A DNA stretch of 64,000 nt, taken from assembly GCA_965248925.1 (NCBI GenBank), contig CBDFLE010000006.1, positions 2,848,001 to 2,912,000 of the forward strand. The letters run 5' to 3'. This stretch comes from Candidatus Multivoradales bacterium. GTDB taxonomy: Bacteria > Acidobacteriota > Thermoanaerobaculia > Multivoradales > J023. This document shows positions 36,017 through 40,728 of the stretch, in pieces. The position numbers were made by a program, and so were the translations under genes. Positions within the stretch are counted from its first letter, which is position 1, and each line of letters starts with the position of its first letter. The notes beneath the pieces are model-generated. The model did no database searches and was not told where the DNA came from. It was given only the letters and a program-made list of their open reading frames with translations.

Positions 36017-37315
36017 TCAAGAGAGGATCTTGGTTAGATCGAAGAAAATCACCACCGCCATCAAGGTCATCAGCATCATGAAGCCGAGCTGGCTAACTCG
36101 TTCCTTGAAGCGCAGAGACAAGTCGCGCCGCAGCACGCTCTCGACCAGTAAAAGAGAGATGTGGCCGCCATCGAGCACCGGAATCGGCAGCAGATTCATG
36201 AAGCCGATACTGATCGACAGGAAGCCCATGGTGAACAGCAGGTCCCTGATACCTCGCTTGGCTGCCTCGCCAGAGATGACCGCGATCTCGACCGGCCCCG
36301 ACAGCGCGCTCTTGGCCTTGATGTCATTGGTCAGCAGTTTGCCGAGAATCTGCACACTGCGCTGGACAATCTCCAAGTTGAAGCGGACGCTGGCAACAAT
36401 CGCCTCGCCCAGTGGTAGCTTGCGGAAGATGCCACCGTAGACGCCGATCTTGCCCAGGCCTTCCTCGTCGGCTTCCGGGGTGACGATGACCTTCACTAGC
36501 TGGTCGTTGCGCAGCACGCCGACTTCCACCGCCACTCCGGGGTGACTTTCGATGAACTCGACGAAGCCCTTCCAGCCCCCCACTGGTTGGCCGTCAATGG
36601 TGTGCGGCAGGTCGCCGGAGAGAAATCCGGCGCGGGCGGCAGGTCGGTCCTTGACCACCTGGGTGATGCGCACTTCGAGTTCCGGACGGATGCCGGCGTC
36701 GCCGTACTCGTAGCGTTCCACTTTGATCGGTGTCACCGTAGTGGCGAAGCGTTCGCCAGCGCGCTCAACGGTGACTTCGACCGGTTTCTCGGCCGCGGTC
36801 ATGAAAGCAAAAGAGACGTCCTTCCATTTGTCGACCTTTTGGCCGTCGATGGCCACGATTAGGTCGCCGATCTCCAGCCCAGCCGCCAGTGCAGGGCCGT
36901 CTTCTTGTAGCCAGCCCACCACCGAGGGGCTTTCCTGCAGCGCCTGGGCTTCGAAGCCGGCCATGAAGACGCCAGTGATCAGCCCCACCGACAACACCCC
37001 GTTCATCGCCGGGCCTGCCAAGTAAACGATGATTCTCTGCCACCGCGGCTTGTTGAGAAACGCGTTCGGGTCGTCGTTGCGTTCGTCGGGGAGCTCTCCG
37101 TCGAGTCGGACATAGCCGCCGAACGGCAAGGCCGACAGACGACAATCCGTACCGCGGTAATTGAATCCCCAGAGCCTCTTGCCGAAGCCGAGAGAGAAGA
37201 CGGGCACATGCACGCCAAAGAGCTTAGCGGCCAGGAAATGGCCCATCTCGTGGACGAAGACGATTGCCCCGAGAGCAACCAAGAAAGCAGCGGAGTTGAA
37301 GAGGATTCCTTGCAT
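36017..37315 (-). CDS. rseP: RIP metalloprotease RseP
   Basis: HEMGH motif, two PDZ domains and NLLPIPVLDGG. Confidence 0.94.
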   Translation of the reverse strand: MQGILFNSAAFLVALGAIVFVHEMGHFLAAKLFGVHVPVFSLGFGKRLWGFNYRGTDCRLSALPFGGYVRLDGELPDERNDDPNAFLNKPRWQRIIVYLAGPAMNGVLSVGLITGVFMAGFEAQALQESPSVVGWLQEDGPALAAGLEIGDLIVAIDGQKVDKWKDVSFAFMTAAEKPVEVTVERAGERFATTVTPIKVERYEYGDAGIRPELEVRITQVVKDRPAARAGFLSGDLPHTIDGQPVGGWKGFVEFIESHPGVAVEVGVLRNDQLVKVIVTPEADEEGLGKIGVYGGIFRKLPLGEAIVASVRFNLEIVQRSVQILGKLLTNDIKAKSALSGPVEIAVISGEAAKRGIRDLLFTMGFLSISIGFMNLLPIPVLDGGHISLLLVESVLRRDLSLRFKERVSQLGFMMLMTLMAVVIFFDLTKILS

Positions 37316-37485
37316 TACAGCCAGAGAGTCTAGCAGGTCGCGCGGCCCTGGTAGACCACCACTGACGCGCCAACCGAGGTTGCTATTGTTTGCCGGTGTC
37401 AGGCAGTCTGCCAAAAAAGCCTTCAGCTATGTCTGGGGGATGGTGTGGATTGGGATCGAGTTCTGGTGCTGCGCCAGGCTCCGCC

Positions 37486-37541
37486 CGTGCCACCCGTCTC
37501 GGCAACATCCGCCCAGCGTGCCACCCGCCTCGGCAACATCC
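37486..37541. repeat. 25-bp direct repeat x2 (REP-like), downstream of the HUH transposase
   Basis: CGTGCCACCCGTCTCGGCAACATCC (37486-37510) and CGTGCCACCCGCCTCGGCAACATCC (37517-37541), one mismatch. Confidence 0.85.
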
Positions 37542-37781
37542 ATCGCGGCCGCTGTTTTTTGGGCTCTGCGAAGTTCACTATCTTGTCCATGGGTGCTCAT
37601 ATCGATTGCAGATGGACGAGGATTCGTGATCTTTGGCTTAACAGTGTCCATCGAGCAAGTTTGCCAACCGCTCGTCATTGCCTTCGGGTTCTATCAGGAC
37701 AGACCTCCCCTGTTGATTGAGAAGTTAATTCCGGTTGTTTTTGGTCTCTCTTGGCAGCAGAGACCCTCGTAAAGTCGCAGC

Positions 37782-38750
37782 CTATCCAGGCACCTGGATC
37801 GGTCCTGCTCTACTACCGGGCTGGCCAAAATCGCTCGAAACACTAGGCCGTGGGGGCGGAAAACAGCTCGGCGGAAACTCTACCGAGTGATCTCCTGCCC
37901 GCAAGCGGACGGCCGCTTGCCGATATGCTTCGACAAAGAGGCGGTAGGCCTCCTTCAACTGCTTGCGGACCGCTCTCGATGCTGCATGGACAGCTGGAGC
38001 TGGAGATTTCTTGCTGCGAGCAGGCCGCTGGTGTGGGTGCTGCTTGCGGATCACTGCCGCACCCAGGGGCACGGGGCCGCCGAGTACCACCCGTCGGGCG
38101 CTTTCAGCATCGATCTCCGCGACCATCTCGGTAAGACGCCGTCGAATTTCATCAGACGGCAGGTGCCGCCAGCAGGGCAGCGGATCCAGCCGCAGGGTAT
38201 GGCGTTTGGTGAAGGTCTCAAGGTCGACCTTCTGGTAACGGCGGTGGGCTTCGTACTCGAGACTGCGGTCACGCCAAATCCCCTCTAGAGGTTTGCCCTG
38301 GGTGAGAGCTTCGATGCACTGCAGCCCTGGCCACTCCCGGCAGCGGAGCACCAGATTCTCTTTCGGGCCGTGGCTGATCACATAGCGCAGTCTGGAAACC
38401 AACGCCGCCTCTTCGCTGCTGACTTCGATAGCTCGGAAGCGGCGGCCCCAGAATTTCTCCGGCCAGTCGACAATGAGATTTGCTTCGCGGGCAAGGTTGC
38501 CGTTGACGTACTCCATGAAGCCGGATAGATCTTTGACGTTGGCGGCTCCGATCAGGAAATGGAGGTGGTTGAGGAGGCCGCCGAAAGCATAGATCTCCAC
38601 CGGATGGCGCAGCTGGGCGCGGGCGATGATGCCGATCGCAATGCTGCGGAAGTGCTCGCCAGCAGGTAGCAGGTATCGGCTTTGGAGGCAGCGCGTGGTG
38701 ATTTCGAAGATAGCGCCGCCGGGGCGAATGTGTCGGAGTTGTCTTCCCAT
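37782..38750 (-). mobile_element. HUH/Y1 tyrosine transposase (IS200-fold, RAYT-like) with a C-terminal extension
   Basis: 'FEITTRC..SRYLL', HUH motif 'LLNHLHFL', 'FWGRRFRA', catalytic-Tyr-like 'LRYVISHGPKENLV..WPG' and C-terminal 'VEFPPSCFPP'. ATG at 38750. Confidence 0.82.
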
Positions 38751-38857
38751 ACCCCCCAAAGACGACAGGGGGGACTCCAATCTTGCGGGTTCGGGCGAGA
38801 AACTTCGAAGATTTTGTGGAGGATCTGGTGCGGAACACATCCGCGGATGGCGTAACT

Positions 38858-39005
38858 GGCTGAAAACAAATGAGTACGAATCGGGTGGCACCCTGAATGG
38901 CACCCTGAATGGGGGCCTGAATGGGCACCCTGAATGGGCTGAAAACAAATGAGTACGAATCGGGTGGCACCCTGAATGGCACCCTGAATGGGGGCCTGAA
39001 TGGGC
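38858..39005. repeat. Nested tandem array: 79-bp-period duplication containing seven CCTGAATGG subunits
   Basis: The unit GGCTGAAAACAAATGAGTACGAATCGGGTGGCACCCTGAAT... starts at 38858 and 38937. CCTGAATGG occurs at 38892, 38904, 38916, 38929, 38971, 38983 and 38995. Confidence 0.9.
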
Positions 39006-39018
39006 TACTTCAGCTACT

Positions 39019-39867
39019 TCAGCTGTTGGCCGACCAGTGCTGAGCGCCAATCAACCACAGGCCGGCGAGAAAGACCGGGGTGGCCAGGAGCAGAGCATCG
39101 AGGCGGTCGTAGAGCCCGCCGTGGCCGGGAATGAGCTGTGAGGAGTCTTTGACCCCAGCTCCGCGCTTGAACAAGCTTTCCACTAGATCGCCGACTTGGG
39201 CGACGACAGCGGTTGCCGCCGCCACTGACAGCAATCCCCCGTCGAGACGGTCGAGGCGCCACATTGACCACACGGCAGTCGCGCCCATGGCGGCGAGGAA
39301 GCCTCCCGCGGCTCCTTCCCATGACTTGTTGGGACTGATCCGTGGCGACATCTTGTGGCGACCGATTTTCGAGCCGACGTAGAACGCCATGGTGTCGCTC
39401 AGCCAGACAATCGCCAGCAGTGCCGCGACCAGCCAGGGGTCTTGCCATTGCAAGGCCCCGAGGCAGGCCAGCGGTACCGCGAAGTAGGGCACCGCGAAGG
39501 CAGCCAGGCCGATCGCCAATGCCGCCTCTTCGACTTTGGTGCGCGGTGACAGGCCGACCAAGGCCGCTGCCAGGGTTACCCCGTGAGCGGCGACCACCAG
39601 CCACAGGCTCACTTTGCCGGATTGTGGATAGAAGCGGAATGCACCGTAAAGCAGGGTTCCGGCTAGGGGCACCCACAGCAACAACCAGCCCAGGGGCGCG
39701 CTCGGCGCCCAGTGGCGAGCAATGCGCACGAACTCGTTGGCGGTGGCTGTCAGTAAGATCGCCAGCAGGCCGAAAATCACCACCGAAGGCAGCAGAAACA
39801 CGGCCACCAGACAGAGCGGTGCGGCGATCAGACCGAAGATCAGGCGCTGTTGTCGCGAACTCGTCAC
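39019..39867 (-). CDS. cdsA: Phosphatidate cytidylyltransferase
   Basis: WLSDTMAFYVG, ISPNKSWEG, GDLVES.FKR..GVKDS..IPGHGG..DRLD. Confidence 0.94.
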   Translation of the reverse strand: MTSSRQQRLIFGLIAAPLCLVAVFLLPSVVIFGLLAILLTATANEFVRIARHWAPSAPLGWLLLWVPLAGTLLYGAFRFYPQSGKVSLWLVVAAHGVTLAAALVGLSPRTKVEEAALAIGLAAFAVPYFAVPLACLGALQWQDPWLVAALLAIVWLSDTMAFYVGSKIGRHKMSPRISPNKSWEGAAGGFLAAMGATAVWSMWRLDRLDGGLLSVAAATAVVAQVGDLVESLFKRGAGVKDSSQLIPGHGGLYDRLDALLLATPVFLAGLWLIGAQHWSANS

Positions 39868-39876
39868 GCCGGGTTC

Positions 39877-40686
<810 letters not shown>

Positions 40687-40728
40687 CTCAGAGAGGCGCA
40701 ATGTACCACAGCGAACCCCGCGGACGGT

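Follow-up and report, generated by a model that had tools for sequence, protein, structure and literature searches.

Structure of the element between cdsA and rseP

The window, the 64,000-nt stretch of DNA that was analyzed, contains a Y1/HUH transposase gene on the minus strand (37782..38750). The ORF, read from 38750 to 37782, encodes 322 aa with the motifs NHLHFL (H62-x-H64) and LRYVISHG (Y123 in YVISHG), and a C-terminal extension of ~170 aa has no Pfam family. No tnpB-sized ORF lies between the transposase gene and rseP or cdsA. A preliminary description had reported a Y1/HUH protein of this length without tnpB; the ORF, its motifs and a PF01797 (Y1_Tnp) score of 26.1 bits against a cut-off of 23 confirm it. 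The element was also said to sit inside a core operon. It does lie between cdsA (39019..39867, minus strand), the left neighbor, and rseP (36017..37318, minus strand), the right neighbor, but it is intergenic. The cdsA stop codon (39019-39021) and the rseP frame are intact, and both genes lie outside the element.

At the left end the inner copy of the terminal motif reads outward as AATCGGGTGGCACCC (38879..38893, plus strand; TGGCAC at 38886-38891). The left tail, CCTGAATGG (38892..38900, plus strand), is near-identical to CCTGAAAGG, which the C6:892048 and C6:1751495 copies carry in this place. The left-end array (38858..39005, plus strand) consists of 12-nt units (GGCAC plus tail) nested inside a 79-nt duplication that repeats the entire motif, with the second motif at 38958-38972. 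Its repeat is 69 nt long with a period of 79 and holds a further family of 12-nt units. At the outer edge a 9-nt tandem duplication of GCTACTTCA (39004..39021, plus strand) overlaps the cdsA stop codon, and we infer that it is linked to the element. At the right end the inner motif reads outward as AGGCGGGTGGCACGC (37516..37530, minus strand) with the tail GCTGGGC (37511..37517, minus strand); the paralogue tails are GCTGTTGG, GCTGTGGG and GCCTGTTGG. The right-end duplication (37486..37541, minus strand) has a period of 31 nt, and its outer copy carries one substitution and a shortened tail. Periods of 25 and 79 bp had been proposed for the two duplicated units; the second holds, but 25 nt is the length of the right repeat and not its period. 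Contigs from 3 of 4 public runs, all of one sample that is possibly the source of the assembly, span the right-end duplication without differences. The left array is spanned by no listed run contig, with breaks at 38887 and 38976.

The 5' non-coding part (38751..38878, minus strand) contains, in close relatives, a site that we take to be IHF-like from its consensus; the site is degenerate in the copy studied here. Allowing up to one mismatch, it occurs within 60 nt inside 7/51 left ends, in 0/51 outside controls and in 0/73 right ends. It was noted at the left ends of L002, L005, L031, L033 and L035 and at left-type ends of the genome that carries the window (G000). The 3' non-coding part (37531..37781, minus strand) is ~250 nt long, a length similar across the family, and its sequence is kept only among close copies. 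Comparison of 84 such regions revealed no cross-family similarity that would indicate a conserved RNA; the top 8-mer was inside the shuffle range and folding z was about -0.6 to -0.9. A promoter and terminator scan found one weak promoter-like site, in host DNA, and no terminator.

Two features of the surroundings were recorded. The gene order is uppS-cdsA-rseP without dxr (39019-40701 and 36017-37318 of the window). No full-length dxr match was found in G000 or 14 same-family genomes, and 5/9 same-order genomes have one. The insertion was rejected as the cause of dxr loss since the 14 same-family genomes lack a full-length match as well; isoprenoids may accordingly be supplied by another route. 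Directly beyond the right end, 124 nt (37360-37483) are 78% identical to C6:2434376-2434497 of the same genome. This homology begins at the outer edge of the element and may represent captured DNA or a small repeat hit by the element.

Relationships of the transposase

H62 and H64 are invariant and Y123 is at least 90% conserved among 53 sequences, and the three residues align with the HUH and Y115 motifs of E. coli RayT. An AlphaFold model (mean pLDDT 87.9) had RayT (4ER8) as its best match (Foldseek E 7.9e-5; Z 14.2, rmsd 3.0 over 155 residues). An HUH motif and a single catalytic tyrosine on a predicted Y1 fold place the protein in the TnpA-Y1 (HUH) superfamily. Its score with the NCBIfam RAYT model NF047646 was 36, under the cut-off of 80.

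In a core tree of 42 rows, 23 family rows formed a clade (support 100/99, stem 1.36) apart from RayT and 18 YxxxNP-type Acidobacteriota proteins. Its sister group comprises 13 YxxxNP-type rows, taken as subclass 2.1 by motif and length. The tree was built without IS200 or subclass 2.3 rows and was rooted at the midpoint only, and the placement of RayT is unsure owing to its long branch. Among the 239 of 270 homologues with an HxH motif, the tyrosine was followed by HG in 145, QG in 55, NG in 17, QA in 1 and NP in 0, and none was found in 21. The spacing from H to Y is 61 residues in 178/218 homologues, and in the model strand 62-69 leads into helix 72-94. A C-terminal domain like Bac_DnaA_C, HTH_23 or HTH_28 was found in 0/53 aligned members (E 0.01). 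Judged by sequence, the proteins are a separate Y1/HUH clade (YxxxHG/QG, without an HTH tail), and going by Table 1 of PMC6006769 they appear to fit none of subclasses 2.1 and 2.3, class 1 or class 3. The available supplements of that paper held no match for four genus names. The tree bears out an uncharacterized clade, which had been suggested as a RAYT subclass; that the element is a RAYT in the REP sense is not supported, as it is multicopy. An atlas search with residues 140-305 returned unnamed clusters only, most commonly from Myxococcota, and these are a lead.

Copies and distribution

The transposase element is multicopy like an insertion sequence. G000 has four more full-length copies with 96.6, 92.9, 92.9 and 77.0% aa identity (77-97% at the nucleotide level), as well as seven copies at 37-43% identity and fragments. 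Synonymous codon changes exceeded non-synonymous ones in all four copy comparisons. Matches occur in 35/41 genomes of the family and order, with a maximum of 53 per genome. Across a phylum sample of 121 genomes, strong full-length matches were restricted to G000 and two same-order genomes, and 13 others had distant matches. The clade is large, and a library clustered at 50% identity contains 1,242 of its clusters (E 1e-30 or better); named relatives are almost all Acidobacteriota, many titled Thermoanaerobaculia. A metagenome protein scan added 5 distant or partial loci, and the plasmid collection gave 2 weak partial matches.

The position next to cdsA was compared in relatives, as the preliminary description had proposed. 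None of 23 other cdsA loci has an adjoining transposase. The cdsA-rseP gap is 55-145 nt in 11 of them and 1.2 kb in 3; rseP was out of reach in 9.

A second subfamily in G000 (C5:709130, C5:1438300, C5:695970 and C6:3633652; 37% identity) has identical upstream sequence in its four copies, and its start codon overlaps the stop of an upstream ORF. Its end is palindromic, GTGCC-T-GGCAC. This subfamily may travel with a passenger gene.

The end motif

The 10-mer GTGCCACCCG occurs at 37487 and 37518 and CGGGTGGCAC at 38882 and 38961, precisely where they were originally placed. The genome-wide excess of the 10-mer is modest, 64 seen vs 34-38 expected (Markov orders 4-6), which is under twofold; GGGTGGCACC was seen 147 times vs 49-56 expected. 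The 10-mer is just the core of a longer end motif. In Thermoanaerobaculia relatives the inverted ends, read outward, have the consensus AWTCGGSTGGCAC, then C (79%) and T (65%); read inward, the motif is GGTGCCAS. At 112 further unique loci the flanks were examined for TGGCAC to a distance of 400 nt. The outward orientation was present in 80/105 left and 81/106 right flanks, the reverse orientation in 15 and 12. Outward TGGCAC is present on both sides in 64/99 loci, vs 2 in reverse orientation, which upholds the suggestion that homologue flanks share an end motif of their own. The exact hexamer is missing on at least one side in 35/99 loci. The position of the motif at both ends of relatives, with tandem copies starting inside it, is far beyond chance.

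No convincing GTAG- or GTGG-footed hairpin was found when 10 candidate feet in the non-coding parts of the element were folded, in line with the reported lack of a GTAG-type REP, and the element ends show weak folds only. Three extra palindromes (37784-37799, 37743-37765 and 38838-38849) are where they had been described but are absent or imperfect in paralogues: by eye, CATCCGCGGATG is not kept and the other two are partly kept. They are apparently unconnected with the system. Solo and truncated ends are frequent, and in G000 solo ends outnumber genes. Elsewhere in this genome, C5:923133-975421 and C6:3502227-3517810 contain a repeat with CGGGTGGCACC every 7.5-12 kb, possibly modules of a large repeated gene.

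Tandem reiteration of the ends

Amplification of the end sequences had been predicted, and about a third of ends (57/161) are reiterated in tandem, scored as a second occurrence of CAC with 6 nt of tail no more than 150 nt away. The rate was 0.13% at 2,260 coding positions and 2/103 at mirror positions. Genome-wide, TGGCAC is the top 6-mer at the starts of perfect 9-18 nt tandem duplications. It is found at 51 of 5,045 starts, where about 1 is expected from its overall rate of 0.00024. A change of the central base abolishes the effect (GGGTGGCAC 20/212 vs GGGTGCCAC 0/98). The array rate climbs with motif score from 27/3,497 poorly matching sites to 76/553 sites scoring 0 or more.

Reiteration might be thought independent of the enzyme, with a GC-rich motif prone to slippage during host replication, to recombination or to misassembly. 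In favor of this, G+C is 62% in this genome, short tandem repeats of other kinds are present, and the left array lacks a spanning contig. Against it stand strict polarity, central-base specificity, a rate that rises with motif score, and microhomology of 0-2 nt at 77/107 junctions. The pattern also recurs in many separately assembled genomes, and the right duplication was found in run contigs. We consider this origin very improbable. The tandem re-copies at the ends are likely a record of the points at which DNA is cut and rejoined by the enzyme.

To locate the end points of the units, 362 ends were parsed. Jumps were present in 163 of them, 379 in total, and the parse yielded 111 clean junctions that were unique. 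Four were dropped (one N run, three nested), leaving 107 (84 short and 23 long units). Ends of G000, partly picked as reiterated, supply 48 of the 107, and related loci are not independent. With outer ends to about +39 allowed in the search, the outer end is compatible with +5..+13, or 5-13 nt outside the motif, in 82/84 short and 18/23 long units. The inner start falls within TGGCAC in 74/84 short units; in 18/23 long units it lies at least 10 nt further in, reaching up to 1.7 kb. No microhomology was present at 30/107 junctions. In one metagenome assembly (G011), whole-gene tandems of 1,473 and 1,686 nt, as assembled, have the same outer point as short units, and it is shared by units of about 250, 115 and 12 nt. 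Outer junctions at A^G were seen at 9/31 ends continuing CT vs 0/16 continuing CC, rows that are not independent; this covariation is only suggestive, and the two bases beside the motif may act as a DNA guide.

A nick at TG^GCAC would account just as well for the sharp inner start of short units, and the identity of the cut strand cannot be read from the microhomology at junctions. The enzyme could have the opposite polarity, nicking TG^GCAC on the outward strand, copying outward over the tail and then rejoining. TG^GCAC is compatible with 67/85 short units, 13/23 short junctions without microhomology lie exactly there, and the best conserved bases of the end motif flank TG^GCAC on both sides. 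Long units, however, start from 10 to about 1,700 nt inside with the outer zone unchanged, tails move with the element and host junctions fall at +7..+12, so that opposite polarity seems distinctly unlikely.

Somewhat less unlikely, but still improbable, is a two-nick exchange in the manner of IS608, in which inner and outer cuts on one strand are joined between sister strands or via a small excised circle. Such an exchange predicts duplications and matching deletions without primed copying. G^G context is found at 26/67 outer sites vs a background of 13.6%, so the two sites share context. Solo and truncated ends are numerous, and in one case an end has been fused to another end's GGCAC (C6:1750131 to the flank of C5:965503). 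TnpA-REP itself cuts both sides of its site and recombines the fragments in vitro, and the two-nick route is drawn in Fig. 7A of PMC3333891. Against the two-nick scheme, specific cuts would be required at scattered inner sites up to 1.7 kb away, and the 30 junctions that share no base speak against it. Joints and circles were also unseen in contigs, though contigs drop rare variants.

Distant YxxxNP-type genes show reiteration at 7/33 ends (motifs loosely chosen), so the habit is wider than the YxxxHG/QG clade. Short (170-205 aa) YxxxNP Y1 genes of other Acidobacteriota (L183, L193, L194, L203, L204) lie between hairpin ends whose last bases are GGGGCAC or GGGCCACC; reiteration of the same kind was seen in two of them. 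Long nested arrays of end units occur in G000 at C6:1089148-1090081, 1196894-1206640, 2177228-2177456, 4209765-4210022 and 931378-931557, and the first three have no transposase match nearby.

Tails, flanks and target sites

Tails are common to copies at unrelated sites: those at C6:892183 and C6:1751360 have both tails in common and unrelated flanks. Seven ends have an element-free homologue of their flank. Five of the 7 junctions resolve to +7..+12 and 2 are unresolved, and the host side begins with G in all 5 resolved junctions. A host-side G corresponds to a 3' C on the inward strand, the same as the strand-transfer requirement given for TnpA-REP in the accessible part of PMC8266576.

Left and right flanks of 82 two-ended loci shared short words no more often than a mismatched-pair control, and a fixed target duplication was rejected. 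The 8-nt repeat CTTCAGCT (37421 and 39016) is ~55 nt beyond the right end and likely due to chance. Three ends in G000 adjoin direct repeats (186, 240 and 367 bp), and on both sides of the C6:1751360 copy the flank is 99% identical to sequence on contig C5, over 267 and 489 bp. At C6:2960084 a multicopy insertion sequence breaks off against a solo left end after about 1,190 matching nt.

No clean two-ended insertion paired with an empty site was found, and it is from paralogy that we argue that the complete element moves as one piece. An exact 26-nt pattern for the empty allele of the cdsA-rseP site had no match in metagenome contigs. Contigs of the runs, which drop rare variants, yielded no usable joints, circles or new insertion sites.

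Could the gene instead be a domesticated, REPtron-like resident nuclease that spreads a short site and is itself immobile? Solo ends outnumber genes in G000, RayT is the closest solved structure and codon changes are mainly synonymous, which speaks for such a nuclease. Near-identical gene copies at unrelated sites would not be expected of it, nor would a cdsA site without the gene in 23 relatives. In addition, no REP hairpin was found and the NF047646 score of 36 is below the cut-off of 80. There is little chance that this reading is correct.

A proposed mechanism

Taken together, the element is multicopy with inverted terminal motifs around its transposase gene, and somewhat more likely than not its enzyme makes the arrays. 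The enzyme would nick 5-13 nt outside each motif, a host polymerase would copy inward, and rejoining would complete the unit. Copy number, the motif at both ends, the end points of the units, the tails and the lack of a fixed target duplication are observed; the chemistry is wholly what we infer. The enzyme would nick the strand reading into the element, usually after C, leaving its tyrosine on the 5' end of the element; this C rule is loose. With the inner point fixed at TG^GCAC the next outer base is G in only 39/67 cases, and a start with G is possible for only 16/23 long units, about 12 being expected by chance. The flanking 3'-OH would prime strand-displacement synthesis. The new strand would stop or be cut, mostly within the motif at GTGC^CA but in some cases deeper in the element, by tens of nt up to about 1,700, and then might attack the phosphotyrosine, adding one tandem unit. 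Such addition is the 'BIME amplification' scheme in Fig. 7B of PMC3333891. If a foreign 3'-OH took the place of the flanking one, the end would be inserted elsewhere.

Being inverted, the two ends would work on opposite strands and for the most part separately from each other, which would leave solo ends and captured flanks and would not produce a regular target duplication. IS91 is described as having one-ended events that lack a target duplication (PMC13181058), and Replitron-1 is reported to have fuzzy ends and variable duplications (PMC10288648). Nicking, inward copying and rejoining is the simplest account of one outer zone, a variable inner point, inherited tails and G at host junctions.

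A bolder possibility, which we regard as doubtful, is a two-origin HUH transposon in which each inverted end would be an independent nick-and-copy origin specified by a short non-hairpin motif. Equally tentative is its corollary that a Y1 enzyme writes tandems of 9 nt to 1.7 kb, fires single ends and captures flanks. If true, this would be a transposition mode undescribed for Y1 enzymes and would provide a site-anchored duplication tool.

Significance and comparison with known systems

TIR-bounded Y1 elements were catalogued in 2013 and 2018 (PMC3733652, PMC6006769). As far as the available text of the TIRYT and REP literature goes, it does not answer how an enzyme acting on single strands could move an element whose ends are inverted, and the BIME amplification model is proposed and undemonstrated. 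The arrays are natural reaction products and point, at each end, to two sites at base level, TG^GCAC and +5..+13, which makes that model directly testable with short oligonucleotides. Given a large clade and tens of matches per genome, the family may be a notable source of rearrangement in Thermoanaerobaculia. A literature search, thin in its coverage of subscription journals, found no paper on reiterated ends or the YxxxHG clade and no experimental study of TIR-bounded Y1 elements.

The preliminary description put the element forward as the best candidate in the window for an undescribed system. A wholly undescribed system is not supported, since RAYT-like genes bounded by terminal inverted repeats were published as TIRtrons or TIRYTs (Di Nocera et al. 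2013, PMC3733652; PMC6006769). TIRYTs have been taken to correspond to subclass 2.1 of TnpA-Y1 (Quentin et al. 2018, PMC6006769) and to Group 1 of the RAYTs, the group reported to be duplicated more often than any other (Bertels et al. 2017, PMC5581495). Like TIRYTs as described there, the element has a long RAYT-like Y1 protein, no REP hairpins, a gene between TIRs and solo repeats elsewhere. Some TIRs, though not all, carry the consensus GGGGWSAS (PMC3733652), which agrees with GGTGCCAS at 6/8 positions in our own comparison with the consensus given in the text. The TIRYT figure and alignment of that paper may list a GGCAC-type end. The available text of the paper makes no mention of reiterated ends, which YxxxNP-type (TIRYT-type) genes also have (7/33). 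The element differs from TIRYTs in its YxxxHG/QG/NG proteins (not YxxxNP) that lack an HTH tail and form a separate clade, in its motif GGTGCCAS and in its higher copy number. It appears to be a variant of the published but unstudied TIRYT/TIRtron kind, within a separate, uncharacterized clade.

Subclass 2.3, as outlined in the available part of PMC6006769, resembles the element in length (about 325 aa), in having several diverged copies per genome and in lacking REP. Its proteins have a core of 172 aa, YVDLNP and a 55-aa insertion between beta3 and alphaC. The element proteins have no 55-aa insertion after the HUH strand (spacing 61) and differ in Y motif and host range, which sets them apart from the published description.

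TnpA-REP (RayT, 4ER8; PMC3333891, PMC8266576, both available in part) shares with the element the closest solved fold (Z 14.2) and local tandem amplification of its site, and low-specificity cleavage after C would, by analogy, fit the element. In contrast to TnpA-REP, the element has no GTAG-footed hairpin, encodes a protein of twice the length and is multicopy and lineage-specific. REPtrons reportedly do not transpose as a unit (PMC3333891, PMC8266576). The GT(A/G)G-footed hairpins, single copy and vertical inheritance that define REPtrons (RAYT groups 2/3) are not features of the element.

IS200/IS605 elements share HUH chemistry and the lack of target duplication. Their TnpA (subclass 1.1) is ~150 aa with YxxxQ, and they have subterminal hairpins and often tnpB, whereas the element has a 322-aa protein with YVISHG, no tnpB and weak end folds only. 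IS91/ISCR elements, from the available part of PMC13181058, likewise have HUH chemistry and no target duplication, and also show one-ended events and flank capture. Unlike IS91, which has one ori end, one ter end and a Rep-type transposase, the element carries the same motif at both ends in inverted orientation.
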